From Opitutia bacterium UBA3534 (GTDB lineage: Bacteria > Verrucomicrobiota > Verrucomicrobiia > Opitutales > UBA3534), in NCBI GenBank assembly GCA_002376875.1, contig DFOT01000001.1, positions 40,659 through 104,658 on the forward strand: DNA of 64,000 nucleotides, written 5' to 3'. Positions within the stretch are counted from its first letter, which is position 1. Each line of letters opens with the position of its first letter. Positions 25,946 to 42,709 of this stretch are shown in pieces. The notes below the pieces were generated by a model. It saw nothing but the letters and a program-made list of their open reading frames with translations, searched no databases and had not been told where the DNA came from. Position numbers and translations under genes: made by a program.

Positions 25946-25982
25946 ATAAAAAAGGCTCTCTATTTCTAGAGAGCCTTTTTGA
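25946..25982 (-). terminator. rho-independent terminator downstream of the histone-like gene (bidirectional shape)
   Basis: Perfect 10-bp stem AGGCTCTCTA/TAGAGAGCCT with loop TTTC, flanked by an A-run and a T-run. Confidence 0.7.
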
Positions 25983-26066
25983 AATTTAGCAGAAACAGCC
26001 CCATTCATGCTGCCTGCCACAAGAAGCGACTTGTGAAAGTGGCTTCTATCAAGAAATTGAAGCTAT

Positions 26067-26819
26067 TTACTTCTTTTTCTTGGTAGTCTTGCGCTTTGTA
26101 GCTTTTTTCTTGGTAGTCTTCTTCTTGGCTACCTTTTTCTTAGCCGTCTTCTTCTTGGCGGTCTTTTTCTTAGCTACCTTCTTCTTAGCCGTCTTTTTCT
26201 TGGCTGTTTTCTTTTTGGCGGTCTTTTTCTTAGCTACCTTCTTTTTAGCTGTCTTTTTCTTAGCTGTTTTCTTCTTGGTAGTCTTTTTCTTAGCCGTTTT
26301 TTTCTTGGTAGTCTTCTTCTTAGCTACTTTTTTCTTAGCGGTCTTTTTCTTAGCAACCTTCTTCTTGGCTACTTTTCTTTTCTTGGGGGCAGCTTTCTTT
26401 TTAGCTACCTTACGTTTGGTAGCCTTTTTAGCTGGAGCCTTTTTCTTGGCTGTCTTTTTTTTGGTTTTCTTTTTTGGGGCCATAGAACTGCTTGTTTTAG
26501 TTAGTATTGTACCTTTTTTAGGGGTAACGGTAAGCGCGTCTAAAGCAACGCGGAGTAATTCTCCAATGCTGACTTGTTTTTGACGCGAAAGTTTAAGGAG
26601 AACTCGTTTGAGATCTTCAGGCAAACGAACTGAAAGTTGTTTGTGTGGTTTGCTTGTGTTTGTAAAATTTTCAAAATCGAAACTACTTATTGCAAAACGG
26701 ATGACTTCACTTAGGGAAGAGGCACCACTTTCGGTTTGGAACTGCTTGAGTTGATTAAAAAGATCTTGTTTGAGGTCAAAGGTGAGAGGCGCATTGCCTG
26801 ACGATTTACCAGCGGCCAT
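26067..26819 (-). CDS. tandem ribbon-helix-helix DNA-binding protein fused to a histone-H1/Hc-like lysine-rich repeat tail
   Basis: The N-terminus has two RHH-like units (PLTFDLKQDLFNQLKQFQTESGASSLSEVIRFAISSF and QLSVRLPEDLKRVLLKLSRQKQVSIGELLRVALDAL). The C-terminal ~135 aa are almost only K/A/T/V, with about 20 (T/V)AKKK pentapeptides. Confidence 0.8.
   Translation of the reverse strand: MAAGKSSGNAPLTFDLKQDLFNQLKQFQTESGASSLSEVIRFAISSFDFENFTNTSKPHKQLSVRLPEDLKRVLLKLSRQKQVSIGELLRVALDALTVTPKKGTILTKTSSSMAPKKKTKKKTAKKKAPAKKATKRKVAKKKAAPKKRKVAKKKVAKKKTAKKKVAKKKTTKKKTAKKKTTKKKTAKKKTAKKKVAKKKTAKKKTAKKKTAKKKVAKKKTAKKKTAKKKVAKKKTTKKKATKRKTTKKKK
26068..26385 (-). repeat. about 20 tandem 15-nt coding repeats (pentapeptide x-A/T-K-K-K)
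   Basis: The plus strand shows a ..CTTCTTCTTGGC / ..CTTTTTCTTAGC periodicity of 15 nt. Confidence 0.85.
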
Positions 26820-27057
26820 TCTATGATTTTAAGTTGTTTTGTAAAAAGATGAATTATATTAAAGTTAAAAGTTTCCTAACTTATTGTATAATAGTACACC
26901 ATGGATATTATTTTTCAATAAAAAAATGCAAAAAAAGCTTATCTTCGGACGGTTATAAAAAAGAGATTATACTCTTTATATCGACATTATTCATACACGC
27001 TTAAATTGTTAAGCATTTGCTTTACTTAGTGAGTCCGATTCCCTATTTTGGTGGCTA

Positions 27058-27564
27058 ATGGCCAAAGAGCGTTCTTATATTACCTTTGTTTGTACTGCCA
27101 ATATCTGCCGTAGCCCTGTGGCAGAGGCCCTTCTGCAGCGTGCGTTAGTCGCACAAGGAGAAGCACTAAGCGCAATTCCAGTTATTTCAGCTGGGGTGAC
27201 TGCCTTTAATGGAGACCGACCTTCGATGAACTCAGTTCGCGTTTTAGAAAAATTAGGCATCGATATTTCTGCACACAGAAGTCAGTGCCTAACGCAAGAA
27301 ATTGTAGAGCGTTCTTTTGCCATTTTTGGGATGACGGCAAACCATTGCATTGCCATTGAAACCCAATACCGCAATCCACCTGCGCATGTTTATTTGATGC
27401 GTCACTTTATGAATAATACCTTCGAGAAGGAGGTTCCTGATCCCTTTGGGATGGCCGTAGAAACCTACGAAGCCTGTCATCACGCTATGGAAGAGGCAAT
27501 CCCGTCGATTGTTGAATTTATTAAAAAGGAGTACCCTTTACATGAAAGTAAGCATAGGAGCTGA
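27058..27564 (+). CDS. low-molecular-weight protein tyrosine/arginine phosphatase
   Basis: CX5R(S) P-loop VCTANICRSP and the DP loop (VPDPFG). Confidence 0.85.
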   Translation: MAKERSYITFVCTANICRSPVAEALLQRALVAQGEALSAIPVISAGVTAFNGDRPSMNSVRVLEKLGIDISAHRSQCLTQEIVERSFAIFGMTANHCIAIETQYRNPPAHVYLMRHFMNNTFEKEVPDPFGMAVETYEACHHAMEEAIPSIVEFIKKEYPLHESKHRS

Positions 27565-27973
27565 TCACGGAGGTATTAGTCTTCGAGAGTCTATTATTGA
27601 AGTCCTTGAGGAGGCAGGTCATGAGGTTGTCGATCATGGTACTAAGAGCAAGGAATCAGTAGATTACCCTGATTATGCCCAAGCAGTTGGGAAAGATGTG
27701 GCCTCAGGAGATTGTGATTTTGGAGTATTAGTTTGCACAAGTGGCATTGGGATGAGTATTAGTGCGAATAAGATCCCAGGTGTAAGGGCTGCGCTTATTT
27801 ATAATGAAGATGCAGCAGAATATGCTCGTCGTCACAACAATGCTAACGTTATTTGTGTAGGTGAAAAATATGTGACTCCTTATATAGGGGCCAGATGTAT
27901 GAAAATGTTTTTAGAGACTCCCTTCGAAGGAGGGAGGCACGAAAGACGAGTGGGGAAAATCGAAAATCAATAG
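27542..27973 (+). CDS. rpiB: ribose-5-phosphate isomerase B
   Basis: [11 protein letters not shown]..., [24 protein letters not shown]. Start at ATG 27542 follows the AAGGAG SD and overlaps the upstream gene by 23 nt. Confidence 0.9.
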
Positions 27974-27977
27974 AACT

Positions 27978-29246
27978 ATGACCGAATGTTTGTTATCAAG
28001 TGAGCCGCTCTCTGAGTTGGACCCAGCTATTGCTGCAGCTATTGCTGCTGAGCGGGAACGCCAAGAGGAGCATGTTGAATTGATTGCTTCAGAGAATTTT
28101 ACTTACCCAGCAGCTTTAGAGGCAGCTGGGAGTGTCCTGACTAATAAATACGCAGAGGGTTACCCCAAAAAGCGTTATTATGGTGGGTGCGAGTATGTCG
28201 ATACGGTCGAGCAGCTGGCTATTGACCGCGTGAAAGAGCTTTTTGGTGCCGAGCATGCCAATGTGCAGCCACACTCAGGCAGCCAGGCGAATATTGGCGT
28301 TTATTTGGCGACCTTGCAGCCCGGAGATAAGATTTTGACGATGAGCCTCGAGCACGGAGGCCACTTGACTCATGGACACCCTAAGAACTTGAGTGGGATG
28401 TACTTCCAGGCGGTTAATTATGGTGTGAATGAGGATGATGGGCGTATCGACTATGATGCTTTGGCAGCTATGGCCGAAAAGGAAAAGCCCAAGATGATTA
28501 CCGTAGGGGCCTCAGCATACCCGAGGGAGATTGATTTTGAGCGCATGGGGCAAATTGCTAAGAGTTGTGGGGCTTTATTGATGGCTGATATTGCTCACAT
28601 CGCAGGTCTCGTTGCCGCAGGATTGCATCCCTCCCCAGTCCCTTATGCCGATTTTGTAACCACCACAACCCATAAGACCTTACGTGGGCCACGCGGTGGT
28701 TTGATTATGTGCAAAGAGGAGCATGCTAAGGCGATTGATTCTGCCATATTCCCAGGCACTCAAGGAGGGCCACTGATGCATATTATTGCAGCGAAAGCCA
28801 TCTGTTTTGCGGAAGCACTTAAGCCTAGCTTTAAAGAATACCAGAAGCAGGTAATAGCAAATGCTAAGGCTCTTGCAGCAGCTTTGGTTGAGCAAGGACT
28901 GACTTTATCAAGCGGCGGAACAGACAACCACTTGATGTTGATTGATTTGCGTCCAAGCCACCCGGACCTTACCGGTAAGCAAGCACAGATTGCTCTAGAG
29001 AAAGCGAATATTACAACTAACCGTAATACCGTTCCTTACGAGACCCGAAGCCCCTTCCAGACCAGTGGAGTGCGCTTGGGAACACCAGCGGTCACTTCGC
29101 GGGGTATGCAAGAGGGCGAGATGAAGACCTTGGCCGGTATTATTGTGTCAGTGCTGAATAACCCTGAGGATGAAGCAACGCTTGCTCAGGCGAAGGAGGC
29201 TGCTGTAGCGCTCTCTAAGGCGAATCCGCTTCCTTATAAAATGTAA
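27978..29246 (+). CDS. glyA: serine hydroxymethyltransferase
   Basis: [21 protein letters not shown], and the PLP-lysine motif [14 protein letters not shown]. Confidence 0.95.
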
Positions 29247-29260
29247 TTGGAGGACATCTC

Positions 29261-29938
29261 ATGAGAAGACGGCGCGCTGCGTTTACCCTCGTTGAACTCT
29301 TGGCTGTGATTGCTATTGTCAGTATTCTGGCGGCAATCATTGTCCCGACTACAGGCAAAGCCATTACCAAGGCCCGTCGTGCTAAGGCGGCGAGTCATTT
29401 GCGCCAGATTGCTTTGGCTCATGCGACTTATACCTATGATGATAGTGGGAGCTTCCGCCAAATTAACGTGAATGATTTGGGGCAGTGGGCTGTTGTCTTA
29501 GCTGAGCACACGGGCTTGAATGATCCGCAGCTTTGGGTGGTGAGTGATGACCCTAAAGTATCTGCATCAACGGCAACAAAACCACGGGTGGTGGCTACCC
29601 ATACGGGAGATAGTTGGGCGCTTGCTAGTGACTTTGCTGCATTTCCTAAAAGTTTTGCGGTGGCCTCAGGCGTTCCTGCGAATGCACCAGCCTCGACAAC
29701 ACCCATTGCTTGGACACGCGGGCTTAAGGCAGATGGAACTTGGGATGCTGAAACAGGTGTGTACGGAGCCCAGGGTGGGCACATAGCGTTCCTTGATGGT
29801 CACGTGCAGTGGTTCCAGAATTTGAGCGCACAAGGCGGGCAGTTAGTTAATTACCAGACAGGTACACCTACGGCTAATATACTAGAGGCCTTGCCTGCGA
29901 GTGCAAAAGCCTGGGATGATACCGGGGCTGCGCTCTAA
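29261..29938 (+). CDS. prepilin-type N-terminal cleavage/methylation domain protein (pseudopilin-like, PVC-type with C-terminal DGHV motif)
   Basis: RRAAFTLVELLAVIAIVSILAAIIVP class III signal peptide. C-terminal GGHIAFLDGHVQWF. Confidence 0.8.
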   Translation: MRRRRAAFTLVELLAVIAIVSILAAIIVPTTGKAITKARRAKAASHLRQIALAHATYTYDDSGSFRQINVNDLGQWAVVLAEHTGLNDPQLWVVSDDPKVSASTATKPRVVATHTGDSWALASDFAAFPKSFAVASGVPANAPASTTPIAWTRGLKADGTWDAETGVYGAQGGHIAFLDGHVQWFQNLSAQGGQLVNYQTGTPTANILEALPASAKAWDDTGAAL

Positions 29939-30453
29939 AGAGCAATATCTAGCGCATATATAAAGCGTTCGAATGCGGGGCTTGTATAGTTGGTTCCAAA
30001 ACTCTTGTGTTCTGCGTAGTTGATTCCGATGAAGCTGAGTCCTAGGAATACCCCACAATATAAGCCTGCTTGCATACGGATGCCCTCACGATTATTGGGG
30101 TGGATCCTAAAAGAATGGAGGAGGCCTAGACGGAAAGGGAGTGTGTAAGACCCTGCAGCATATTTTAAGGCTGCCAGGGGCTCTTTCTCGAGTTTTTTTT
30201 GTGCAAGTGCCCAAAGGTGGCTCGAAGCTTTTTCATAATCCTGGAATGCTATTCTGCGCAGAAGTAGAGGGGCTTGATCAGTACAGCCCGACTGCACACT
30301 ACCGCAAAATGCAGCTTCAGTCGCTATCATGCGCTCTTTAGGGGAGAGCGGGTTGCGAGGGTTCAGGAGTGCTCTGGCGTCTGGAGGCCGAGTCGTTGGC
30401 TCGGTAGGAGTAAATCTTTGTCGAGGAGGTATGGTAGCTGCATTTGTAGGCAT
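29935..30453 (-). CDS. hypothetical protein (172 aa; Pro-rich N-terminus, one hydrophobic segment); last gene of the polB operon
   Basis: Its ATG is 3 nt after the stop of the upstream gene. No domain recognised. Confidence 0.5.
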   Translation of the reverse strand: MPTNAATIPPRQRFTPTEPTTRPPDARALLNPRNPLSPKERMIATEAAFCGSVQSGCTDQAPLLLRRIAFQDYEKASSHLWALAQKKLEKEPLAALKYAAGSYTLPFRLGLLHSFRIHPNNREGIRMQAGLYCGVFLGLSFIGINYAEHKSFGTNYTSPAFERFIYALDIAL

Positions 30454-30456
30454 AAA

Positions 30457-31938
30457 TTAGGTAGTGGCTTGGGCTTCTTCAGGTATAGGAGGAGTCATTG
30501 CTTGGATGCGTCCATTAAAGTAAGCACTTATGCCATAGTCTTTGCTTCTTCCTTCAAAGCATTCTTGTATTTTTTTACAGGCTTCTTCAAAGGCCCTTGG
30601 GGTGAAATTACGATGGAGATCTTCATCGATAAGGGCTGTTTTTATGTCAAAGAAAGGAATGAACCCTATTCTTTTGGGTGGTGACCAAGGCAATGCTGTT
30701 CCTGTAAAAGGGGTGTAAGCGTCTTTGAAATGGTTTTTTAGGAATCCCTCGAAGTAGGCTAGTAGGCCCCACTGTATGTGAAGGTCTTCGATACGAAAGA
30801 TAAGGGGAATGCTCTGAGTATCAAGCACCTCAGGGAGGAACTCTAGCATAACTTGGCAGCGCTCAGGAATACTCAAAGCCTCGTAGTCATCCCATGTTTT
30901 AGTAGTGTCCTTTTTTAAGAGGCAAAGGAAGGCTGCTGCATTTGTAAGTATGTCGTATTCCTTGTGGGAAGTTTCACTAGGGCAAGGGGTTCGATAGAGT
31001 TGTTGCGTATCGACAGGGATGCTTACAACAAGGTCTATGAGGCCTTGAAGTGCCTCCGTATTTTTTTGTTTAGCGGCATAGAGGCCCAAGGTCTTTAGGA
31101 TAGTAGTCGGTTCTTCAGCAGTAGACGGATCCTCTATGATGCTGAGCATATTCATGAAATCACTGGCTAGCTTTGCGTAGCTCAAGATCTCTTCTGTCGT
31201 GAGTGCTCTTTCAGCGCTTTGGTTTAGAAAATGAGCTGTAATGCCGTAGAGCTTATTAATAGTACTCAGTTCTTCAGGAAATTTATTGCTTGGAAGAAAC
31301 TTCCTCCAAGCAATATTTAAAGCTTCTGCAGAACTATATCGGTAGGAATAAATATTGCCAAAGAGTTCTCGAGCACGCGTTGCAAAGTGAGTATAAGGAG
31401 AAGAGAAAGCTTCGATTTCTTCGCCTAACCATATTCTATTCAGTGCTTTTAAAAGACTTTTGAAGAACTCAGGCATAAAAACATCTAAAAAGTCATCTTT
31501 AGACTGATTCGTCTCTTTGAGGTATTGGGTGAACTGATCACTCTTTTCTGGATCGAGTAGCTTTTCAATAAGCTTAAGTGCCGATTCTAGATCATAACGT
31601 TCGCAATACATGCGGATTATCGTTTCAATCCTATGACCATTCGATTTTAGAGCATCACAGATATAATGCCCAATCAGCTCATCTCCTTCTATCTGCTTCC
31701 CTTCGCGATCTTTTAGAGTTCCCTTTGCATTATAAGAGCCTTCGGGGAGAAGGTCGCCCTGAATCATTTTGAATGTTTGCTCAGGAGGTAGCGTGTATTT
31801 AATTGTATATTGTGTCCCATTCGCAAAGGTAAGGGTCGTAGTAACTGGTAGCTTTTGAGGTTCTTCATGCGGAGGAAGCACAAAAACATCTTGGTGGGAA
31901 GTTGAAGCCTTAGAGGGAGCAGTAGTAGAAGAGTCCAT
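30457..31938 (-). CDS. hypothetical protein (493 aa), paralog of 31992-32837 over the N-terminal ~230 aa
   Basis: Shared blocks TLTFANGTQYT/VTYTFQDGTTHT, ALKSNGHRIETIIRMYC/ALKANGCSTESIIKLLC, and FTQYLKETNQSKDDFLDVFMPEFFKSLL/LTKYLKATAQSREQLLNTFMPEFWQRLF. Confidence 0.6.
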   Translation of the reverse strand: MDSSTTAPSKASTSHQDVFVLPPHEEPQKLPVTTTLTFANGTQYTIKYTLPPEQTFKMIQGDLLPEGSYNAKGTLKDREGKQIEGDELIGHYICDALKSNGHRIETIIRMYCERYDLESALKLIEKLLDPEKSDQFTQYLKETNQSKDDFLDVFMPEFFKSLLKALNRIWLGEEIEAFSSPYTHFATRARELFGNIYSYRYSSAEALNIAWRKFLPSNKFPEELSTINKLYGITAHFLNQSAERALTTEEILSYAKLASDFMNMLSIIEDPSTAEEPTTILKTLGLYAAKQKNTEALQGLIDLVVSIPVDTQQLYRTPCPSETSHKEYDILTNAAAFLCLLKKDTTKTWDDYEALSIPERCQVMLEFLPEVLDTQSIPLIFRIEDLHIQWGLLAYFEGFLKNHFKDAYTPFTGTALPWSPPKRIGFIPFFDIKTALIDEDLHRNFTPRAFEEACKKIQECFEGRSKDYGISAYFNGRIQAMTPPIPEEAQATT

Positions 31939-31991
31939 GCTGGGATTCTAATCTATTTAAATTCTTTGTAAAGAGCATACGCTCCCTATCA

Positions 31992-32837
31992 TTAAGCTAA
32001 TAGCTTGAGGAAGCTCTCTAACACTGCTTGGTCTTGAGTTCCGGAAAGACAGTCTTTGGCTAATGCAGTGTACCTTTCTATTAGATCTTCGGAAGGTTTT
32101 GTTTCTTCTGCCGTTTCAACATGGAAGCTCTTGGCGATACCTTCAATCCCCTGGTAGTTTCCCTCAATCTTAAGATTTGGGTAGATGAGCTTATAGGTTT
32201 TATTTAAAGCCTGTGCGGATTCTTTTGCGTATTCTTCCCTTTGAAAAAGGTTACGAAGGCGAATTGCAATGTTGTTAAGCTTTGAAGCTAGTTCTCTTTG
32301 GGCCGGGATTTTGCGTGTTTTTTCAGATAGGCGTAGTTGATTTAGCGATCCTTGGGCTCTTGTGGCTTTGTTAATCAGTTCAAAAAGACGCTGCCAGAAT
32401 TCAGGCATAAAAGTGTTTAAAAGTTGCTCGCGGCTTTGCGCTGTTGCTTTTAAATATTTAGTGAGCTGCTCTGCATTACTAGGGTTAAGGAATTCCTCTG
32501 TAAGGGTAAGGGCCTGGCATAAAGCATTTTGAGTACATAGGAGTTTTATGATAGACTCTGTACTGCAGCCATTCGCTTTTAAAGCAAAGGTAAGGTTCAG
32601 GTGGTAGGCTGGTTGATCGGAGGTTGATTCCGCTTCACGAGACTGAAGGCAGTGAATAGTCCCTTGAGGAAAACAATCCGATAATGAGGCAATAGCTCTA
32701 CCAGGGGTAACCGGCCCTTTAGTAGTGTGTGTTGTTCCATCTTGAAAGGTGTAGGTCACAGTGCGTGTGACTTTTGTGTTATGTGGAATATTAAAGAGGT
32801 TTGGTATAGCAGCAGTATTGATAGGTGAGGGTTCCAT
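31992..32837 (-). CDS. hypothetical protein (~281 aa), paralog of 30457-31938
   Basis: Same shared blocks as the 493-aa paralog. ATG 32837 lies 11 nt after the polB stop; the track ORF starts at TTG 32846. Confidence 0.6.
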   Translation of the reverse strand: MEPSPINTAAIPNLFNIPHNTKVTRTVTYTFQDGTTHTTKGPVTPGRAIASLSDCFPQGTIHCLQSREAESTSDQPAYHLNLTFALKANGCSTESIIKLLCTQNALCQALTLTEEFLNPSNAEQLTKYLKATAQSREQLLNTFMPEFWQRLFELINKATRAQGSLNQLRLSEKTRKIPAQRELASKLNNIAIRLRNLFQREEYAKESAQALNKTYKLIYPNLKIEGNYQGIEGIAKSFHVETAEETKPSEDLIERYTALAKDCLSGTQDQAVLESFLKLLA

Positions 32838-32848
32838 AGCCCCCAAGA

Positions 32849-35026
32849 CTACCCAAATAGCTCACCCTGTAAAGGCTCTTCTGACTCTAGAAACTCCCCA
32901 TAGCGCTTGAGCCAGTCATCAATCTTTTTTAGATAATACTCGCTATTATAAGGGAGTGTCTCTGGGTCATACTCTTCGATGGCTCGGGCCTGCTGCCAGT
33001 CGGGTAGGCGCTTTTTGTCCCCGGGTGTAATGAAATAGGTAACACGCTCTCCCATCTGGGGGCGTTTTTTGCAGCGCAGGGCAACCTCTAGGGATGCACG
33101 GCGGGATTTCGTGCCCTCGCTAATTGCTTTTTGATAGACGCCAGGGTTTTGGCTTAAGTATTCACTTTTAGCAAGGCGCTCTACAGGAAAAGTCTTTGCT
33201 TCAATCTCTTTACGGAATTGGTCAATTAGGGTCTTCGGTGATTCAGGTGAAGCACCTAAGAGATAATAGATGAGGCAGGTACTGAGTTCTTTAAGGTAAG
33301 GCTCGATCCCCCGAGAGCGCAGTGCAGAACCCCTTAAGATAACACGCTGGCCATCGTAGAGGGCGTAGTTTTTGGCCTTATAGCAGAACATGGCCGGGTA
33401 CGTGCCGTCATGCTCAAGGTCAACGCCTTCAGGGAGGACAGCAGAGGCTTTTTTTAGGAGCACCTCAGGTTTTTTGTAATATTTGGATGCTTCTACGTAG
33501 ATACCATCAGTGTCTGCTTCGAGCGGGGTACAGCCTTCTTGCTGGAAGGTTTCGATGAGTGTTTGTAAGAGCTCTCGGCCTTTAGCGGTAGTCTCAGCGG
33601 CAAGGTCCCCGTCAGCGAAGCGTGCGCCCGAGAAGCCTAGGTAGCCGTAGAAAGAATTAATCAGTATTTTAAAACTAGATTGGCGCGCGTCGTACTCTTG
33701 CCGGAGGGCTTCTGTATCTGCAGTGCGGGCTTTTTCTTTATACTCAAGACGGTATTGGCGCAGGTCTTGGAGGGTTTTTATGAAGATGCCTAAGCTGTCA
33801 TTTTTTGGGTTCCTCCCTAAGAGCAACAAGAGGCTTGGGTAGAGAGAGGCGACGTCAAAATGAAGAACCTCTTGATAGACACCCGTTTCAAAGCTTTTAG
33901 TGTAGCCACCTTCGAAGCGTGAGACTTGTTCCCCCATGGGGAGGCTGTGTTTGTTGTGGTAGTACTGCTCTAGAAATATGGCATCTACTTTATGGGCAGT
34001 GCCGCGTAAGCTGGCTTCTTGAAGCGTAATCGGGAAGTTCTTTACCTGAGCAAAATAGGTAGGGAGGAGCAGGTTCGCTACCCCTTGAGTTTCACGTAGA
34101 TCATCTTTGAGGTAGCTTAAAAATGCTTCCCGGTTTGTCTCGAAAGCGCCCGCAATTTCATGGCCTTCTAGATAGGTACGCTTGTTAGCCTCAGTCGTGA
34201 CACCGAGTTGTAGGGCTACGTCTTTGAGTCCGTATGAAGAAAGATCCCGTGCCGTGAGGTCGTAGATTTGGATCATGAGGTAGGTGTCAAACACGGTACG
34301 CCCAGGGATATCGCAACGCGGGAAGTCAATCATGCGTTCGGCAATGCGAATTCGACTCTTGTGCGAGCTAGCCTTCTGACCAAAGCGCCCCCACTGGCAG
34401 GCGACGTTTAGTTTTTGACAGCGGATGCGCAGGTATTCGAGGTCGAACTTAAAGATATTATGCCCTTCGATTGTGTCCGGGTCATGCGTAGCGAGGGCTT
34501 CATTGAATTGCTCGAGGAGCTCAGCCTCGGCTTCGTCAGAATCTTCTGAGAGGGTGAGTAGCTCGTAGTGATCCCCGAAGAGTAGCCCTATAGCAAGGAC
34601 ACGGTCCCCATCGCGCCAGGCGCTGCTAAACCCGTTGTCGACTGAGCAGGCTGTTTCGATATCGCACTGGCAGCGCTTAAGGTCAGAGAAATTAAGGTCT
34701 GCAAAGAGTCGCAGTTGGTTTTTGAGGAGGTGTTGGCCCTCTAGGGATTTGATGGCTTCTAGGTTGTAAGCTTTGCGGTTGTCCTTGAGCCAAGTGTCAT
34801 AATCGTTACGCGAGGTAAAGTGGATGAGTTCGTTTAAAGCGCCATCCCCTGCAAGTTTTTCGGTAGAGGCTGAGGGTGGGGGTGTTGCTCCGGATTCAAT
34901 CCATAGAAAGGGGGACAGTTTTTGAGTGCTTTCAGTACGTTTACCTTGAGTATCGACCTCTTGTTGATGGACAATACCTTCAGGGCTTACCCAAAGAGCA
35001 GACAGCGATGTAGAAGAAGCACTCAT
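32849..35026 (-). CDS. polB: family B DNA polymerase (Pol II-like, proofreading-proficient)
   Basis: Exo I CDIET, Exo II HNIFKFDLEYL, Exo III YLKDDLRET. Pol motif A DVASLYPSLLL, motif B KILINSFYGYLG, motif C EADTDGIYV, and KxY YKAKNYA. The C-terminal QGELFG resembles a beta-clamp-binding QxxLF motif. Confidence 0.9.
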   Translation of the reverse strand: MSASSTSLSALWVSPEGIVHQQEVDTQGKRTESTQKLSPFLWIESGATPPPSASTEKLAGDGALNELIHFTSRNDYDTWLKDNRKAYNLEAIKSLEGQHLLKNQLRLFADLNFSDLKRCQCDIETACSVDNGFSSAWRDGDRVLAIGLLFGDHYELLTLSEDSDEAEAELLEQFNEALATHDPDTIEGHNIFKFDLEYLRIRCQKLNVACQWGRFGQKASSHKSRIRIAERMIDFPRCDIPGRTVFDTYLMIQIYDLTARDLSSYGLKDVALQLGVTTEANKRTYLEGHEIAGAFETNREAFLSYLKDDLRETQGVANLLLPTYFAQVKNFPITLQEASLRGTAHKVDAIFLEQYYHNKHSLPMGEQVSRFEGGYTKSFETGVYQEVLHFDVASLYPSLLLLLGRNPKNDSLGIFIKTLQDLRQYRLEYKEKARTADTEALRQEYDARQSSFKILINSFYGYLGFSGARFADGDLAAETTAKGRELLQTLIETFQQEGCTPLEADTDGIYVEASKYYKKPEVLLKKASAVLPEGVDLEHDGTYPAMFCYKAKNYALYDGQRVILRGSALRSRGIEPYLKELSTCLIYYLLGASPESPKTLIDQFRKEIEAKTFPVERLAKSEYLSQNPGVYQKAISEGTKSRRASLEVALRCKKRPQMGERVTYFITPGDKKRLPDWQQARAIEEYDPETLPYNSEYYLKKIDDWLKRYGEFLESEEPLQGELFG

Positions 35027-35112
35027 TGAATTATAGCTTGAATAGATAGGAGTGTAGGTTCAATGAAAGAGTCTTGCTTTGTTTAAAAAAGTCTTTACTG
35101 AGTTGTTTTGTT

Positions 35113-35325
35113 ATGGACGTTCAAGAATCAAACCAAGTTATACAAAGTACCTCGATAGGACAGGTAGAAGAACAAGCTCAAGGCAAAATTGGTAAATATA
35201 TGATTACCATGCGTGATATGTCTAGGACGCAGGTGATTGGTTACTACCATACTCAAACAGGGGTTGCCTATTACCCTGATGGACGTATTTGCCAGGGGAG
35301 TAAGCTTACTCCTGTAAATGCTTAA
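35113..35325 (+). CDS. small hypothetical protein (70 aa from ATG 35113)
   Basis: ORF divergent from polB and ending 10 nt before a strong terminator. No homolog recognised. Confidence 0.3.
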   Translation: MDVQESNQVIQSTSIGQVEEQAQGKIGKYMITMRDMSRTQVIGYYHTQTGVAYYPDGRICQGSKLTPVNA

Positions 35326-35335
35326 GTTTTAGATA

Positions 35336-35371
35336 TAAAAAAAGCCGTCTAGTTATTAGACGGCTTTTTTT
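35336..35371. terminator. bidirectional rho-independent terminator (serves rpmA and the small plus-strand ORF)
   Basis: AAAAAAAGCCGTCTA-GTTAT-TAGACGGCTTTTTTT: a 9-bp perfect stem with an A-run and a T-run. Confidence 0.8.
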
Positions 35372-35388
35372 ATTAAATTGAAAATCTT

Positions 35389-35646
35389 TTAGTTAGCAGC
35401 AGCTACAGGTTCTACAGATACCTTGCGGTGCTTAGCATCCCAGATTACCTTACCGTCTACTAGAGAGAATAGGGTGTAGTCGTTACCGAGGCCTACATTT
35501 GCTCCTGGGCGCATTCTGGTTCCGCGCTGACGCATTAGGATGTTTCCTGCGCGTACGGTTTCTCCTCCGTACTTTTTAACGCCAAGGCGTTGGCTATTAC
35601 TATCGCGTCCGTTCTTGGAGGTTCCTTGTCCTTTTTTATGTGCCAT
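35389..35646 (-). CDS. rpmA: 50S ribosomal protein L27
   Basis: [24 protein letters not shown]... Confidence 0.95.
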
Positions 35647-35659
35647 GACTTAAAAGTGC

Positions 35660-35974
35660 TTACGCTTTGATGGATTTAATTTTGATAACGGAAATTTCTT
35701 GGCGGTGACCACGCTTGCGCTCGTAGCCCTTACGACGCTTCTTCTTGAAGACGATTACCTTCTTGTCGCGCTTGTTCTCGAGGATCTCAATCACTACGGA
35801 AGCACCAGATACCTTAGGGGTACCAAAGCGCACTTGCTCGCCTTCACCTACCATGCGCACGTCATCGATAGTGACGGAATCACCTGCGTTGGTGTCTTTA
35901 AAGCGGTTTACAAAAAGGATGTCTCCTTCTTTTACCGTAAATTGTCTGCCTTGAGTCTGTATTGTCGCCTTCAT
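35660..35974 (-). CDS. rplU: 50S ribosomal protein L21
   Basis: [18 protein letters not shown]..., 104 aa, upstream of rpmA. Confidence 0.95.
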
Positions 35975-36095
35975 AGAAAAGCTGTTAAGTAAATAAATTA
36001 AAGTCGTTTATGAAAGAGGACTAGCATCTCAGTTTTTCGTGGCTATGCAAGCCGAAAAAGAGAGATTATTCGTGATAATTTATTATTCTTAAGGG

Positions 36096-36536
36096 CTAGG
36101 ATCCCATTGGTTTAAGCTGCTGTTGCAGAGCAACTTGGAACTCCTGCAAATCCTCCTCTGAGGGGCGATAGCCCTCTTCTTTGGGGATTAACCCCAGTCT
36201 GCCGAGGGGATCTACCTGCCAGGCAGCGCTTTTTCCATCTGAAAAAACGACCTGTCCGCTGGCTACGGTACCTGGGCGAGTAAGCTTATCGACCTCTACC
36301 TGGACTCCGCCCACAGGCTCTAGGTCTGAGGCTCCTTCTTCGGCTTTAGGTTCTGGGGCAGCAGGCTTTTCTTCTTTGGCGAAATTTAGGCCCAAATCAT
36401 CCACCAGGAAGCGTGCTTCCATATAAGTAAGGGGGATATTCCACTCTTCAGTGATCCTTTTCTGGATTTGGGCGAGAGTTTCCCCGGCGTCTATCCAGTT
36501 GGCAATGTGCGTCTTTTGGTCTTCAGAAAGCTCCAT
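36096..36536 (-). CDS. hypothetical protein (146 aa) immediately downstream of dnaA
   Basis: ORF 18 nt after dnaA on the same strand. No motif recognised. Confidence 0.5.
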   Translation of the reverse strand: MELSEDQKTHIANWIDAGETLAQIQKRITEEWNIPLTYMEARFLVDDLGLNFAKEEKPAAPEPKAEEGASDLEPVGGVQVEVDKLTRPGTVASGQVVFSDGKSAAWQVDPLGRLGLIPKEEGYRPSEEDLQEFQVALQQQLKPMGS

Positions 36537-36554
36537 GATGGGGCTATTTGAGAC

Positions 36555-37985
36555 TTAAAAGCGCTGATTGGCAAGCTGGTTTTGTAAAGACTCAACCGTA
36601 TGCTTAATTGAAGCATCTTGCTCCATCATGTTTTCTACGGTTTTGCAGGCGTGGATTACGGTCCCGTGGTCCCGGCCACCAAAGTCATTCCCGATTTCTT
36701 GAAGGGAGTGACTGGTAAGCATGCGGGAGAGGTACATTGCAATTTGTCTTGGGAAGGCAATATTCGCCGGTCGGCGCTTACTGCTCATGTCCTCAATCGT
36801 CAGCTTATAGTATTTGGCGATCTTTTCTTGGATCTTTTCGATCGAGATCTTGTTTTGAGCTTCCTCTTGCAAAATATCTTGCAGGAGTTTTTCAACGGAC
36901 GCGATGTCAATAGAGCCATTAGTGAGGGCTGCATAACCCGCAACACGGGTTAGGGCTCCTTCCATACGACGTACGTTACGTGAGACACGCTCAGCGAGGA
37001 ATTCCATAATGGGTTCCTCAAGCTCAAGGTTCATGGCTTCTGCCTTTTTAGCGAGAATGGCCATGCGGGTTTCCAGGTCAGGTGCTTGGATGTCTGTTAC
37101 CAAACCCCACTGGAAACGAGAGACAAGGCGGTTTTCGAGTTTTGCAATCTCGTTCACCGGCCGATCCGAGCTCATTACAATCTGTTTTCCTGATTCAAAC
37201 AGCTCGTTAAAAGTGTGGAAGAACTCCTCTTGGATACGTTCTTTGCCAGAGAGGAAGTGAATGTCGTCAATAAGCAAGACGTCTGCTTGACGGTATTTTT
37301 GTCTAAATTTGATAACGCTGTTTTCTTGGATAGCGCGGATGTACTCGTTAGTGAATTTCTCGGAGGAGACGTAAATGATCTTTGCCTCGGGGTTCGTGTT
37401 GAGCACATGATGGGCGATCGCCTGCATGGAGTGAGTTTTTCCGAGTCCGGTATCTCCGTAGAGGAAGAGGGGGTTATAGGCCTTACCAGGGGCATTCGCT
37501 ACAGCAATACAAGCAGCATGAGCGAGTTGGTTTCCTACGCCCACTACGTAGTTTTCGAAAGTGTTCTTAGGGTTGAGCAGGTAATGTCTTTGAGCCTTAG
37601 GCTTCTTAAAGCGATCGTCTGCAGCTGTTGTGTTTAGGTTGGGGATGCGTGTTGTAGGGGTTTCTAGGCCAGAAAGTGCGTCTTGAGCTGAAGGGACCTT
37701 AGTGGGGGTTGTTTCACGGGCAAGATCATTGCCGGTCGCCTTAATTTCAACAGCCATAGAATGGCCAGTGGCCATTTGAAAACGTTTCGCAATAAGGTCT
37801 GAGTAGTTATCTTGAATCCAGATAGCCGCGAAATCGTTCGGGACCCCTAAAGTGATGCTTTCATCGTCTTGCTGTATGCATTCCATGGATTCAAACCAGG
37901 TGCGATAAACATCATGGGGGAAGAGACTTTGAAAGTCACTTTTTACGGTTTCCCAGAGATCTTGGGTACAAGTAGTATGGCTCAT
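36555..37985 (-). CDS. dnaA: chromosomal replication initiator DnaA
   Basis: Walker A GDTGLGKTHSMQAI, LLIDDIHFL, sensor motifs, and C-terminal DNA-binding GGRDHGTVIHACK. Confidence 0.95.
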   Translation of the reverse strand: MSHTTCTQDLWETVKSDFQSLFPHDVYRTWFESMECIQQDDESITLGVPNDFAAIWIQDNYSDLIAKRFQMATGHSMAVEIKATGNDLARETTPTKVPSAQDALSGLETPTTRIPNLNTTAADDRFKKPKAQRHYLLNPKNTFENYVVGVGNQLAHAACIAVANAPGKAYNPLFLYGDTGLGKTHSMQAIAHHVLNTNPEAKIIYVSSEKFTNEYIRAIQENSVIKFRQKYRQADVLLIDDIHFLSGKERIQEEFFHTFNELFESGKQIVMSSDRPVNEIAKLENRLVSRFQWGLVTDIQAPDLETRMAILAKKAEAMNLELEEPIMEFLAERVSRNVRRMEGALTRVAGYAALTNGSIDIASVEKLLQDILQEEAQNKISIEKIQEKIAKYYKLTIEDMSSKRRPANIAFPRQIAMYLSRMLTSHSLQEIGNDFGGRDHGTVIHACKTVENMMEQDASIKHTVESLQNQLANQRF

Positions 37986-38175
37986 GTGGTTATTGTCAGA
38001 AAAAAGAGGGTTAAGAGTGAGGGTTGATAATCAAGTTGTTGCAAGGTGTTGTTTTAATAAGTCAGCTAAGGGGCCTGCTGCTCTTATTAACCCTGCATGA
38101 TAAGCGGCGGTGCATCAACTGCAGCTGGCTTATGCTTTGTATTATGAGTGGTTTTGATTATCTGAGACATATAAT

Positions 38176-38700
38176 TGTGAAAAAACGGGGTATGAATAAG
38201 ATTTTATCGTGAACAAGACGTGTTTTGGTCTATGAATAAGAGTAAATCCCCAAAGCTTATTCGATGGCAAGTGCAACTTTCTAACAAGTTATTCACGGAC
38301 TTTTGCGCACAAATTTTGCAGAAAAAGGTTGCTTTTATTTGGGGTGGTTCTTTAGTTAATAACTTGCTGTTTGTGAACAACTTACGGGACAAAAAACTGT
38401 GTCAAGGAAAAACCTGAACTTTTGATCGTTATGTGAAGGGCATCTTCTGGCGGATGTGAGTTAAGGTGAGAGAGACAATTTGTCTCATGCAATATTTTGT
38501 AAGTGTGTTTCATATATGCCTGTCTGAATAGCAACATCTCTGGATCCCGCATCAGTAAAGCTTCTCGCAGCGATACCTATAAGGAATGCTAAGGAAAATA
38601 TTTGATTTTTCTCTCTTAAAAAAGATTGTATTTGTTTTTTGAATACAAATTAAAGTTTTTATAAGGCGTTGACTCGGCTATAAACCGCATAAAAAAGGGA
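38176..38700. other. candidate oriC: cluster of degenerate DnaA-box-like 9-mers plus an AT-rich stretch
   Basis: The region is a 770-bp non-coding gap upstream of dnaA. It contains TATGAATAA (38191, 38231), CGTGAACAA (38208), TTATTCACG (38289) and TGTGAACAA (38372), each within 1-2 mismatches of TTATNCACA or its complement. An AT-rich tract runs at ~38586-38700. Confidence 0.4.
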
Positions 38701-38755
38701 TTTATTGACTTTAGGCAGTGTGTAGGGTTAAATTTTACTATTTTCTATCTTTCTT

Positions 38756-41236
38756 TTGACTTTTATGGGGGCTCCACCAACTAAACGCACTTATTCAAAT
38801 CTTTCTCTAGAATCTTGGTTTCAGCACCTGATTCCGGAGTGGGAGGGGTATTTTCCTGTGGAAGCTTTGCGCCTGGGTCGGGAATGCTACCGGGATGATA
38901 TTATTAGGGAGGTGGAGCTCTCTAATGAGGATGCCATTGTAAATGCCAAGATTAAAGGGGAGGAGCATTATGCGGTTCTGGAGTGGAAGGAAGGAGCGCT
39001 TTCGAGCCGGGCTTCAGTCCAAAACCCTATTTTGGGGAAGGCATTGGCTGTGGCCGGTATTTATGAGATTGAGGCATTAATTGCTGATGAAATCTCCATG
39101 CTGCCGCTTGAAGATGATGTAGAGCCTGAAGAGCCTCTCTATGAGGACTGGAGGCTGCAATTCCCGCAGGAACCTCAGGCAGTCGCGCGCCCTTTAGTAT
39201 TAGAAGTCTCTGTGGGTAGCTTGGGGCTTATGGTGCGTTCTTTTTGGCAAGACCCTGAGAAAGGTCGCATCCCTGCTTTGACGGACAAGGAAAGTTTAAA
39301 GGGGCAGGCCCTGTCCTTGCCTGAGCGAGAGAAGATTATTCAATTTATCCGGCTTGCGCATCGTGCAGGGTTTCGTCTGCTACCTTATAAGAAAGCTTAC
39401 GTGCTGAAGGATTTTAGTAATGCACAATATTTCTTGAAAAAAGAATTACCGCGATGGCGTTTGTGGTTTCGTGTAGAGCGCGATAAAGAACTTTTATTAC
39501 TTAGGAAAGGGGAGCAATCTTTGGAGGCTATTACTCAATTAGCCGCCGATGATAGGGCGTCTGCCCGTTTGTCATGGAAGCTTTGCTTGGGGGATGAGCT
39601 GCTTTCAGAACTTGAGAGCTCTTCAGTGATGCGTCATGTGGGCCAGGTTACTTTCTTGAAAGGAAAAGGTTTAGTACGTTTGAGCGCGCCTCGCCAGAAA
39701 CTCCTTACAGATTGGCAAGGGTTTGCGGATAAGCAAATACCCTATTATATGCTCTTTGCTTTTAGCCAAGAGGCAGGGAAGGCACTCGAGCTAAGCCCTG
39801 AGCTTGAGTCTTGGAAAGCTTCTTTATTAAAGGGGCCTCAGGAAAAAGAAAAGAAGATCGGCTGTTTAAGGCCTTATCAGGAACGTGGAGTCAAGTTTTT
39901 AAGGCACTTAGCAGAGCATGATTGCCACGGCTTGTTAGCAGATGAGATGGGGTTAGGGAAAACCTTACAGACCCTCAGTCTAATCGCCAGCTACCCTACA
40001 AGGGGAAAACCGAGTTTAATAGTGTGTCCGGCAAGTGTAATTCCTGTATGGATAAAGGAGGCTGCGCAGTTTTTCCCGGAATTAAAATTAGCGGTACTTA
40101 AGAAGGGCAATGACTTTAAGGCCTTAGAGCAGCCGGATGTTTGGTTGAGTAGTTATACTCAATTGCGTAGGCACAAGCCTTTATTAGGAGAGGTTGAGTT
40201 TGGTTATGCTGTGCTTGATGAAGGGCAGTTTATTAAAAACCCTGAGGCAAAAGTAACCCAGGCGTGCTTATCAGTACGTGCGGCCCACCGCTTTGTTCTC
40301 ACGGGAACGCCTTTAGAGAACCGAGTTTTAGATGTGTGGACACTTTTCAGGTTTTTAATGCCAGGGTTATTAGGGACGCGCAAGCAGTTTGAAAATCGCT
40401 TTGCAAACCAAGATGCTGAAAGTCTCGAAGCCTTGCGGACTCAGATAGCGCCTTTTGTATTGCGCCGCAAAAAAACAGATGTGCTTGAAGAGTTACCTGA
40501 AAAGGTAGAAATGGATTTGCATTGCCCACTGACTGATCTTCAGCGCGAAAACTATCAGGAACTTGTTGAAAAGGGGACTGCTGCCATGACGGGGGCCTTA
40601 CCCCAGGTTATGAAGCACCAGTCGATGAGTGTCTTAACTCTGCTGACACGTTTGCGCCAGGTCTGCTGTGACCCTGCGCTGCTGCCTGAACATAAGCCCT
40701 GTGATTTTCAGCAAAGCGGTAAGCTAAAGGTCTTGCTGGAAAGATTGAGTGAATTGCTCGAAGGGGGGCACAAGATCGTGATCTTTAGCCAGTTTGTAAG
40801 TTTATTGGATCGAGTAGAGGGCGCTATTACTCAAGAGTATCCACACTGTCCTTTATATAAATTAACGGGCCAGACTTTGGATCGAGCAGAGCCTGTAGAT
40901 ACTTTTCAGGAGGCAGAAGGCGCTGCTGTGATTTTAGTTTCGTTACGTGCGGGCGGTACAGGGATTACCCTGCATGCAGCTGAATATGTTTTCTTGCTCG
41001 ACCCCTGGTGGAACCCTGCTGTTGAGGCTCAAGCAATTGATCGGGTGCACCGCATTGGACAAAAGCATCCTACTTTTATTTATCGTTTAGTTGCACCTGG
41101 AACGGTTGAGGAGCGGATCCAAAAGCTGAAGACTCAAAAGAAAGATTTATTTGAGGGTGTGGTTGGGGAATTGAAGGATGTTTCCCAGGTATTAAGTTAT
41201 TACGAATCTCTAGGGCAGCTCATTGACCTAGAGTAA
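38756..41236 (+). CDS. SNF2/RapA-family DEAD-like helicase with N-terminal SWIM-like (apparently ligand-less) region
   Basis: LRPYQERGVKFLRHL....GLLADEMGLGKTLQT, DEGQFIKN, helicase-C motifs GGTGITL and QAIDRVHRIGQ. The start (TTG 38756 or ATG 38765) is uncertain. Confidence 0.85.
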   Translation: MTFMGAPPTKRTYSNLSLESWFQHLIPEWEGYFPVEALRLGRECYRDDIIREVELSNEDAIVNAKIKGEEHYAVLEWKEGALSSRASVQNPILGKALAVAGIYEIEALIADEISMLPLEDDVEPEEPLYEDWRLQFPQEPQAVARPLVLEVSVGSLGLMVRSFWQDPEKGRIPALTDKESLKGQALSLPEREKIIQFIRLAHRAGFRLLPYKKAYVLKDFSNAQYFLKKELPRWRLWFRVERDKELLLLRKGEQSLEAITQLAADDRASARLSWKLCLGDELLSELESSSVMRHVGQVTFLKGKGLVRLSAPRQKLLTDWQGFADKQIPYYMLFAFSQEAGKALELSPELESWKASLLKGPQEKEKKIGCLRPYQERGVKFLRHLAEHDCHGLLADEMGLGKTLQTLSLIASYPTRGKPSLIVCPASVIPVWIKEAAQFFPELKLAVLKKGNDFKALEQPDVWLSSYTQLRRHKPLLGEVEFGYAVLDEGQFIKNPEAKVTQACLSVRAAHRFVLTGTPLENRVLDVWTLFRFLMPGLLGTRKQFENRFANQDAESLEALRTQIAPFVLRRKKTDVLEELPEKVEMDLHCPLTDLQRENYQELVEKGTAAMTGALPQVMKHQSMSVLTLLTRLRQVCCDPALLPEHKPCDFQQSGKLKVLLERLSELLEGGHKIVIFSQFVSLLDRVEGAITQEYPHCPLYKLTGQTLDRAEPVDTFQEAEGAAVILVSLRAGGTGITLHAAEYVFLLDPWWNPAVEAQAIDRVHRIGQKHPTFIYRLVAPGTVEERIQKLKTQKKDLFEGVVGELKDVSQVLSYYESLGQLIDLE

Positions 41237-41239
41237 GCC

Positions 41240-42709
41240 CTAGTGATGACGAGTTCGTGCATCAATAGCCCACTGGTAAATATCAGTATACTTTTTGGCG
41301 GACCTATCCCAGGAGAATTCTTTTTGCATCGCATTCTTCTGGAGCTTTTTGATGGCTTTGGGTTTGTCATAGTAGGTGGCGCAGGCCCAGCCTATAGTGT
41401 AGTAAAGCCCATTGGTGCTAGCTTCACCGAATAAGAAACCTGTGCCTGTTTCTTCCTGTTCGTTATAAGACTCAATAGTGTCGACCAACCCTCCTGTAGC
41501 GCGTGCAATAGGGAGTGTTCCGTAATTCATCGCGTACATTTGAGTTAGGCCACAAGGTTCGAAACGGCTAGGCATTACAAAGAAGTCAGCCCCTGAGAAG
41601 ACTAAGTGTGAGAGCTTGGGACAGTAGCCAATATAGGCCCCCACTTGGCCTGGGTAGGCATTCGCATAGTGTGAAAACAAATGCTCTAGGGTTGGATCCC
41701 CGGCCCCGACTACTATGACTTGGATCTTCATCTCGGCTATCAGTCTTGGGATGATAGCGGCCAAAAGGTCTAGGCCTTTTTGATCGTATAAGCGCGCAAC
41801 AGCCCCAAAAATGGGTATGTTAGGGTCTTTTTTGAGATTAAAAGCCTTTTGGAGGGTTTCTTTGCAAAGCGCTTTTCCAGAAAGGTCTTTTGTTGAAAAA
41901 TGAGCAGGGAGGCGTTTATCTGTCTGAGGATCCCAAAAGTCTGTATCGATACCGTTCAAGACTCCAATGAGGTCAGCGCCTCGGAAGCGCAATACATCCT
42001 CAAGCCCACAACCAAATTGAGGGCCCCTGATTTCTTGAGCATAATGGGGGCTTACCGCTGTAATCTTTGTGGCATGGTAGAGGGCGCCCTTTAACATGTT
42101 GATATTACCCACACACTCTAAGCCATCGTTACGTAAGAGCCATGCTGGAAGCCCTGCGAATTGAAGTGTCTCAGGCCCGAACACGCCTTGGTGGCGCAAG
42201 CTATGGATAGTGAAGACAGTGGCTGCTTGGCCTAGCGGCTTGTAGCGTTCTATGGTATTTAGGTAAACCGGTACCAGCCCTGTGGGCCAATCATGGCAAT
42301 GGATTACGTCTGGAATCCAGTCTAGGTGGTAGCATAAATCAAGCCCTGCTCGGCTAAGGAAAGTGAAGCGCTCGTGGTTATCGCTGTGGTCTCCCCAGGG
42401 GCCTGTATAGATTTCATGGCGTTCAAAATACTGATTATACTCCAAGAGGTATACAGGGATGTCCGTATGGGGGACTTTTGCTTCCCACAGGCCTGCCTGA
42501 AGTATGCGCCCTTCGCCTAAGTGGACTTCAAGGGGGTTTTTATCTAACTTCCAGTCTTCTTTTTTTTGAATGCAGCCGTAGCGCGGGAGTACGATGCGCA
42601 CATCGTGCCCTAGCTTGCGCAGTGCTTTAGGTAAAGAGCCTGCAACATCTGCAAGCCCACCAACTTGGGCAAAAGGGGTAGCCTCAGGTGTGATGAATAG
42701 TATTTTCAT
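41240..42709 (-). CDS. glgA: glycogen synthase
   Basis: MKILFITPEATPFAQVGGLADV (K-x-GGL) and a GT5 C-terminal domain. Start set at ATG 42709; the 38-codon upstream extension in the track overlaps the LysR gene. Confidence 0.9.
   Translation of the reverse strand: MKILFITPEATPFAQVGGLADVAGSLPKALRKLGHDVRIVLPRYGCIQKKEDWKLDKNPLEVHLGEGRILQAGLWEAKVPHTDIPVYLLEYNQYFERHEIYTGPWGDHSDNHERFTFLSRAGLDLCYHLDWIPDVIHCHDWPTGLVPVYLNTIERYKPLGQAATVFTIHSLRHQGVFGPETLQFAGLPAWLLRNDGLECVGNINMLKGALYHATKITAVSPHYAQEIRGPQFGCGLEDVLRFRGADLIGVLNGIDTDFWDPQTDKRLPAHFSTKDLSGKALCKETLQKAFNLKKDPNIPIFGAVARLYDQKGLDLLAAIIPRLIAEMKIQVIVVGAGDPTLEHLFSHYANAYPGQVGAYIGYCPKLSHLVFSGADFFVMPSRFEPCGLTQMYAMNYGTLPIARATGGLVDTIESYNEQEETGTGFLFGEASTNGLYYTIGWACATYYDKPKAIKKLQKNAMQKEFSWDRSAKKYTDIYQWAIDARTRHH

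Follow-up and report, generated by a model that had tools for sequence, protein, structure and literature searches.

Within a 64,000-nucleotide (nt) stretch of the Opitutia bacterium UBA3534 genome (assembly GCA_002376875.1, contig DFOT01000001.1, positions 40,659 to 104,658; hereafter the window, whose own numbering is used throughout), a gene for a family-B DNA polymerase, polB, is followed closely by three further genes, and the relationship of these three to the polymerase is the subject of this analysis. All four open reading frames (ORFs) lie on the minus strand, in the transcription order polB (35026..32849, 725 amino acids, aa), p281 (32837..31992, 281 aa from an ATG start), p493 (31938..30457, 493 aa) and p172 (30453..29935, 172 aa). 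For p281, a TTG codon 9 nt upstream offers an alternative start that would give 284 aa. The spacers measure 11 nt (polB-p281), 53 nt (p281-p493) and 3 nt (p493-p172), the last placing the p172 start 3 nt past the p493 stop. Both coordinates and sequence bear out the layout described in an earlier note on this DNA, of a polB with same-strand ORFs of 281, 493 and 172 aa at these spacings, and the gene calls and spacers of the four-gene cluster are identical in strain L081. We refer to p281, p493 and p172 together as the trio. The downstream boundary of the cluster is set by a convergent plus-strand gene (29261..29938) for a protein with a prepilin-type N-terminal methylation motif, the end of which has a 4-nt overlap with the p172 stop codon; this N-methylation-motif gene is followed by glyA and a low-molecular-weight phosphatase gene, in synteny with relatives. 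Upstream of polB, the same strand carries dnaA, a 146-aa ORF, rplU and rpmA.

An inverted repeat with the features of a bidirectional intrinsic terminator follows rpmA (35335..35373). Its 17-nt arms are 100% complementary around a 5-nt loop, A and T runs lie at its flanks, and its RNA fold of -22.3 kcal/mol (z -9.4) was equaled by 0 of 200 shuffled sequences. As so strong a hairpin closes the rpmA ribosomal-protein unit, polB appears to open a new transcription unit. The polB upstream region (35027..35334, minus strand), which is almost identical in strain L081, contains as its top promoter-like site TAGACA-18-TATATT at 35224..35195, a consensus match only, with 10 of 12 positions matching in a sigma-70-like scan. 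No TGTTC-N4-GAACA-like site (the Verrucomicrobia LexA box) with up to two mismatches was present in 35027-35390, and matches to this motif across the window occurred at chance level. We also observed an 83-aa ORF on the plus strand (35074..35325), opposite polB, that takes up the better part of the interval from the rpmA terminator to polB. This ORF corresponds to a 70-aa gene call in L081, has no family match and, if real, overlaps the presumed polB promoter region.

Within the cluster, no terminator-like hairpin was found on the coding strand between polB and p172. The polB-p281 junction folds no better than shuffled sequence, and the 53-nt spacer before p493 (31939..31991, minus strand) forms only a small, non-significant hairpin (z -1.16). 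This spacer, which differs from L081 at 1 of its 53 positions, does contain a sigma-70-like hexamer pair ahead of p493, TTTACA-16-TAGAAT at 31972..31945 (10 of 12 matches), so that part of the cluster may have its own promoter. Cotranscription of polB and the trio from the polB promoter is plausible and is the simplest reading of these signals. The suggestion that the downstream genes ride on that promoter thus gains from the lack of an internal terminator and from the 11- and 3-nt junctions, but is tempered by the promoter-like pair before p493.

The polymerase itself was described beforehand as having all exonuclease and polymerase motifs and a C-terminal QGELFG, and every one of these could be located: ExoI (DIET, 122-125), ExoII (NIFKFD, 190-195) and ExoIII (YLKDD, 305-309) for the exonuclease; motifs A (DVASLYPS, 391-398), B (KILINSFYG, 453-461) and C (EADTDG, 503-508) for the polymerase; a KxY motif (KAKNY, 550-554); and QGELFG at 720-725. 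The protein matches the Pfam families DNA_pol_B_exo1 (expect value, E, 3e-13) and DNA_pol_B (E 5.6e-26). The premise that it should be judged as an E. coli-type Pol II, however, did not survive: the best NCBIfam Pol II equivalog, NF004421, scores 108.8 bits against a cut-off of 570, other models fall further short, and motif C carries the glutamate of bacterial group G3 instead. Among structures in the PDB, the sequence matches Thermococcus PolB at E 3e-38 and E. coli Pol II at E 4e-15. Group G3, as defined by Kazlauskas et al. (2020, PMC7544198), is an uncharacterized bacterial group akin to the N-terminal half of Pol epsilon, and the motif-C glutamate is its clearest synapomorphy, common to Pol epsilon N and archaeal B10 (PMC7544198). 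G3 enzymes retain both active sites and a beta-clamp motif and are still uncharacterized (Timinskas et al. 2026, PMC12926913). On the strength of the glutamate in EADTDG, the intact motifs and the published group criteria, we file the window PolB as an ordinary member of the known bacterial G3, or Pol-epsilon-N-like, group, an assignment made by motifs. From its intact Exo motifs the enzyme is predicted to proofread, and from its C-terminal QGELFG it probably binds the beta-clamp.

To place the cluster among its relatives, we compared 160 orthologous polB loci, 80 from GTDB species genomes and 80 from metagenome contigs, with PolB proteins 54-59% identical to that of the window. EADTDG is present in 160/160 of them, and a Qxx-L-[FLMI] motif stands at the extreme C terminus of 110 of 159 PolB orthologs. 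PolB is conserved across Opitutales, with thousands of matches at E < 1e-100, and is vertically inherited there. Its identity falls from 99% within the same species to at most 60% in GTDB, in JGI metagenomes and in a database of 5.8e9 clusters, the best named relatives being Ruficoccus and Rariglobus; this gap suggests that the host belongs to a poorly sampled marine Opitutales-like lineage, a placement that draws on Tara and ENA hits and on these two named relatives.

Homologs of the trio were found in 0 of the 160 polB loci, whether by tblastn, by phmmer or by profile hmmsearch on six-frame ORFs, and loci L162 and L163 likewise carry only unrelated, Pfam-annotated genes downstream of polB. 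Orthologous polB genes without these neighbors, which the earlier note had named as a sign of random juxtaposition, are what these loci show. In L011, L021 and L055, polB is followed by convergent DUF5069 and RNase R genes and then by the N-methylation-motif gene, with an extra CBS-DHH gene in the slot of L011 and L055. The surroundings are otherwise recognizable: glyA comes after the N-methylation-motif gene in L021 and L055, rplU-rpmA lie upstream in L011 and L055, and in L028 the N-methylation-motif gene and glyA are likewise retained behind polB. The N-methylation-motif homologs in these four loci are 37-44% identical to that of the window and occupy the corresponding place. Convergent DUF5069 and RNase R genes again follow a lone polB in Ruficoccus sp. 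ZRK36, whose genome (L162) is complete, and in other clades the downstream position is taken by a GT39-like membrane protein, a SerB-like HAD phosphatase, a cupin or a LysR regulator. As these neighbors are clade-dependent, unrelated and of a housekeeping kind, PolB appears to have no conserved downstream partner.

The products of the trio are of two sorts. p281 is paralogous to residues 1-265 of p493 (30% identity, BLASTP E 3e-28), and a 40-nt DNA echo at a spacing of 932 nt fits a tandem duplication. p281 is predicted to be soluble and, like p493, mostly helical with an N-terminal beta-hairpin, according to low-confidence models; in p493, residues 266-493 are unique and predicted to be helical. 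Neither protein has a transmembrane-grade segment by hydropathy. p172, in turn, is basic (pI 9.5), and the proline-rich N terminus and single hydrophobic segment attributed to it were both recovered: 10 prolines fall within its first 40 residues, and its sole hydrophobic segment spans residues 129-147 (AGLYCGVFLGLSFIGINYA). The 19-residue Kyte-Doolittle mean of this segment, 1.46, lies below the usual transmembrane cut-off of 1.6, which makes it only a borderline transmembrane candidate.

Database searches left the trio without relatives, in agreement with the earlier impression that none of the three has a recognizable motif. There was no family match in Pfam, NCBIfam, PADLOC or PHROGs (none at E < 0.1 in the latter two), no relative in IMG/VR, and no detectable DNA-binding, nuclease, clamp-like or other replication-related domain. 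A word-indexed search of 5.8 billion protein clusters with p493 and p172 returned only the query or its strain variant, and an exhaustive HMMER search of 1.84 billion representative proteins, its profile built from the domain common to the two paralogs, gave these paralogs as the only real matches. Structure prediction was of little help. AlphaFold2 reached a predicted local distance difference test score (pLDDT) of 44 for p493 from a single sequence and 46 for p281 from a two-sequence alignment, and Foldseek against the PDB, an uninformative check, had its best match at E 0.44, all matches being to generic helices of the 14-3-3 and TPR-like kind. These searches identify the trio, at the level of sequence, as species-restricted orphan genes, with p281 and p493 forming a tandemly expanded family.

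Two apparent similarities were examined and set aside. Ig-repeat matches (P0010, Big_13, and P0011, SpaA) were weak, summed over repeats and confined to the N-terminal beta-hairpin, and were dismissed as noise. A match to a designer PPR protein in a PDB profile search, with a summed E of 1e-11, proved to be built from ten identical repeats contributing 4-7 bits each; the individual alignments had E values of 36-240 and covered a single helix-turn-helix of ~30 residues, IIKLLC..L..AL.L.E..L, and Pfam PPR and TPR models did not match p281 or p493 even at E up to 10.

We examined whether the ORFs behave as genes by comparing strains, setting ENA contig L081 (3027-19077) against window positions ~25950-42000 (16 kb) and aligning the genes by codons. 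Nonsynonymous divergence (dN) was lower than synonymous divergence (dS) in each of the three, with dN/dS ratios of 0.30 for p281 (Fisher p 2.7e-6), 0.30 for p493 (p 7e-5) and 0.23 for p172 (p 7e-3), as against 0.04 for polB, 0.05 for glyA and 0 for dnaA. With 91.5% nucleotide identity and a dS of 0.20, p281 is the most strain-variable gene of the region. Divergence reaches 6-9% in p281 and 5-7% at the p493 3' end, compared with 0-1.3% in the middle of p493 and 0-3% in the cluster flanks; the only other bins at 4-5% lie near 40.5-41.4 kb, so that the trio holds the most strain-variable stretches of the comparison. Its only indels are whole codons, namely two in-frame single-codon indels in p493. 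Because the frames are intact in both strains and nonsynonymous changes are significantly underrepresented, we consider the trio to be real genes; their products are, on this comparison, real proteins under moderate purifying selection, and fast-evolving ones.

The same data bear on the idea that the three ORFs are not genes at all, and instead are chance frames or the decayed antisense shadow of RNase R and DUF5069. The failure to find homologs or recognizable domains would suit such an origin, as would the size of the slot, 2.9 kb in the window against 3.0 kb for the DUF5069 and RNase R gap in L021. We nevertheless regard it as effectively refuted: the frames persist in both strains despite a divergence here of as much as 9%, nonsynonymous changes are depleted (Fisher p 3e-6 to 7e-3) with indels of whole codons, and the paralogs retain 30% protein identity. 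A direct search for an antisense relic of RNase R, DUF5069 or CBS-DHH, by tblastn at E up to 50, produced only scattered, short, non-colinear matches.

Synonymous divergence in the trio is raised together with nonsynonymous divergence, as would be expected if alleles were exchanged with more distant members of the population, and not under mutation pressure alone. Across the comparison as a whole, strain divergence is a mosaic of 0-9% per 300 nt with sharp blocks at p281, at the p493 3' end and at an SNF2-helicase gene, a pattern that suggests frequent homologous recombination in the population. Base composition sets part of the trio apart. GC content is 0.428 for p281 and 0.424 for p493, compared with 0.495 for p172 and 0.500 for polB, and p281 and p493 thus lie ~1.3-1.4 standard deviations (SD) under the mean of 34 long window ORFs (0.463, SD 0.027). 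The paralog genes are therefore mildly AT-richer than their neighbors, as had been remarked by eye, but p172 is not AT-rich. Trio codon usage, computed against window genes, is unremarkable.

Variability and composition of this kind raise the possibility that the trio is cargo of a horizontally acquired element, such as a defense, phage-derived or other island, that displaced DUF5069 and RNase R. The GC of p281 and p493, ~7.5 points under polB and the flanks, is in keeping with this, as are the filling of the slot by different genes in syntenic relatives and the top strain variability with raised dS, since allelic exchange is typical of accessory loci. Such an acquisition is nonetheless unlikely, in our view. 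Neither the PADLOC and PHROGs searches nor IMG/VR connect the trio to defense or phage genes, flanking repeats, an integrase or a nearby transfer RNA (tRNA) were not found (the only tRNA is 10 kb from the cluster), GC and codon usage stay within ~1.4 SD of window genes, and no donor lineage was found among 15 billion proteins.

The compact arrangement also invites the view that the trio encodes lineage-specific accessory subunits of the G3 PolB, serving processivity, targeting or regulation and coexpressed for stoichiometry, much like the predicted partners of the PolB2 mutasome or the ImuA/ImuB of DnaE2. One strand, spacers of 11/53/3 nt kept in two strains and the missing internal terminator all accord with it, and bacterial operons of a polymerase plus partners have precedent (PMC12926913). 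Yet none of the 160 loci has trio homologs, and in the closest complete genome polB is solitary; the trio's dN/dS is ~6-7 times that of polB; no replication-related domain is detectable in it; and this PolB retains every Exo motif, whereas PolB2, which depends on partners, is exo-dead. We accordingly judge accessory subunits to be quite improbable. The earlier proposal of dedicated accessory factors loses its footing on the same counts, given the absence of trio homologs from all loci and the heterogeneity of the neighbors. A narrower version, in which p281, p493 and p172 are newly evolved partners of the G3 PolB in this lineage, complexing with or tethering it, for example to the membrane via p172, we hold to be highly improbable.

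The explanation that we favor, and think likely, is that the trio consists of passengers with a role unrelated to the conserved function of PolB. The slot behind a conserved polB holds, in one sparsely sampled marine lineage, three lineage-restricted genes of the same direction. p281 and p493 appear to have arisen by tandem duplication, p493 with an extra C-terminal half, and p172 is a small basic protein whose C-terminal helix is weakly hydrophobic. Transcription of the trio would most likely start at the polB promoter, past the rpmA terminator, and read through, with a secondary promoter before p493 possible; the p172 start, 3 nt past the p493 stop, would allow translational coupling. The trio genes appear to exchange alleles between strains. 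Our best guess, guided by the structure models, is a soluble helical scaffold pair together with a small partner associated with the membrane, in an accessory role that varies between strains.

Several points weigh against the trio being passengers of this kind. As judged by sequence alone, there may be a lineage-specific physical association of the trio with PolB. The operon structure is a prediction from spacing and consensus scans, and the hexamer pair ahead of p493 could uncouple that gene and p172 from polB. The nearest PolB outside the species is 60% identical, and so the absence of the trio spans a long branch, in a comparison without a sister species. No insertion scar, flanking direct or inverted repeat, integrase or nearby tRNA at the locus explains how the trio arrived. 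Finally, the helical description of p281 and p493 draws on low-confidence secondary structure, the models themselves being unusable.

Other features of the window deserve mention. The 146-aa ORF between dnaA and rplU (36096-36536, minus) is without a Pfam match; the two strains both keep its frame intact, and the constraint on it is relaxed (dN/dS 0.48 from 8 substitutions). GC skew is positive over the whole 64 kb, without a sign change at dnaA (36555-37985, minus), and TTATCCACA-like DnaA boxes number 12 against 12.9 expected, with none in the 770-nt AT-rich intergenic region between dnaA and the SNF2 gene. With neither a skew change nor an excess of DnaA boxes, dnaA may not mark the replication origin. 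A 250-aa protein encoded at 26067-26819 (minus) combines a ribbon-helix-helix domain (RHH_1, E 4e-6) with a ~140-residue lysine/alanine tail of the KKKTAKKK type that resembles the chlamydial histone-like Hc2, below the Pfam cut-off; its gene lies in the kilobase with the highest AT content of the whole window (GC 0.37) and is conserved in L081 (dN/dS 0.06). An unusually long secretin-family protein of 1676 aa is encoded at 9769-14799 (plus), with Secretin_N and Secretin within the first 560 residues and ~1100 residues beyond them that have no domain assignment.

For polymerase biology, the consequences of this cluster are small, the enzyme being a typical member of a described group and its neighbors not being conserved. 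What the comparison adds is that Opitutales uniformly carry a G3 PolB that has EADTDG and a C-terminal motif of the clamp type and whose gene usually stands alone. The trio, for its part, cleanly illustrates a fast-evolving gene family that is taxonomically restricted, tandemly duplicated and under selection, directly behind a conserved gene, and offers material for the study of orphan-gene origins. Were it true that the trio binds PolB, it would provide a first handle on the function of the G3 group and a case of a repair or replication enzyme recruiting orphan subunits.

Set beside known systems, the window PolB resembles bacterial G3 enzymes in its architecture (an N-terminal domain, a DEDDy exonuclease and a polymerase), in EADTDG and in its C-terminal clamp-binding-like motif. 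The G3 papers report no gene-neighborhood partners (PMC7544198, PMC12926913), and no conserved ones emerged from our analysis either.

E. coli DNA polymerase II belongs to the G1 group, and its gene is SOS-regulated and monocistronic. The window enzyme is like it in being a family-B polymerase with proofreading (predicted here) and a C-terminal motif of the clamp-binding type, and in that polB genes of the window type stand alone in most relatives; it differs in falling below the equivalog cut-off, in being closer to Thermococcus PolB within the PDB, in having EADTDG and in showing no LexA-like box in the upstream scan. The PolB2 (G2) mutasome, composed of a polymerase and two partner proteins (cited in PMC12926913), presents the same outward picture, a family-B polymerase gene with small genes behind it that belong to no otherwise known family. 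The PolB2 exonuclease domain is inactivated, however, with ExoI not conserved and ExoIII missing (PMC7544198), whereas the Exo motifs of the window PolB are intact; and the PolB2 partners are conserved alongside their polymerase, whereas the neighbors in the window occur in one species only.

With PPR/TPR-like repeat proteins, p281 and p493 share one helix-turn-helix stretch and models of antiparallel helices; only a single motif is present, however, and the family models fail. The trio comes closest to taxonomically restricted, tandem-duplicated orphans, which it matches in its confinement to a single species-level lineage, its relaxed but significant purifying selection, its slightly lower GC and its hypervariability. 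It departs from typical orphan genes in sitting unusually tightly behind a conserved, housekeeping-type gene, in a slot that is otherwise occupied in relatives.

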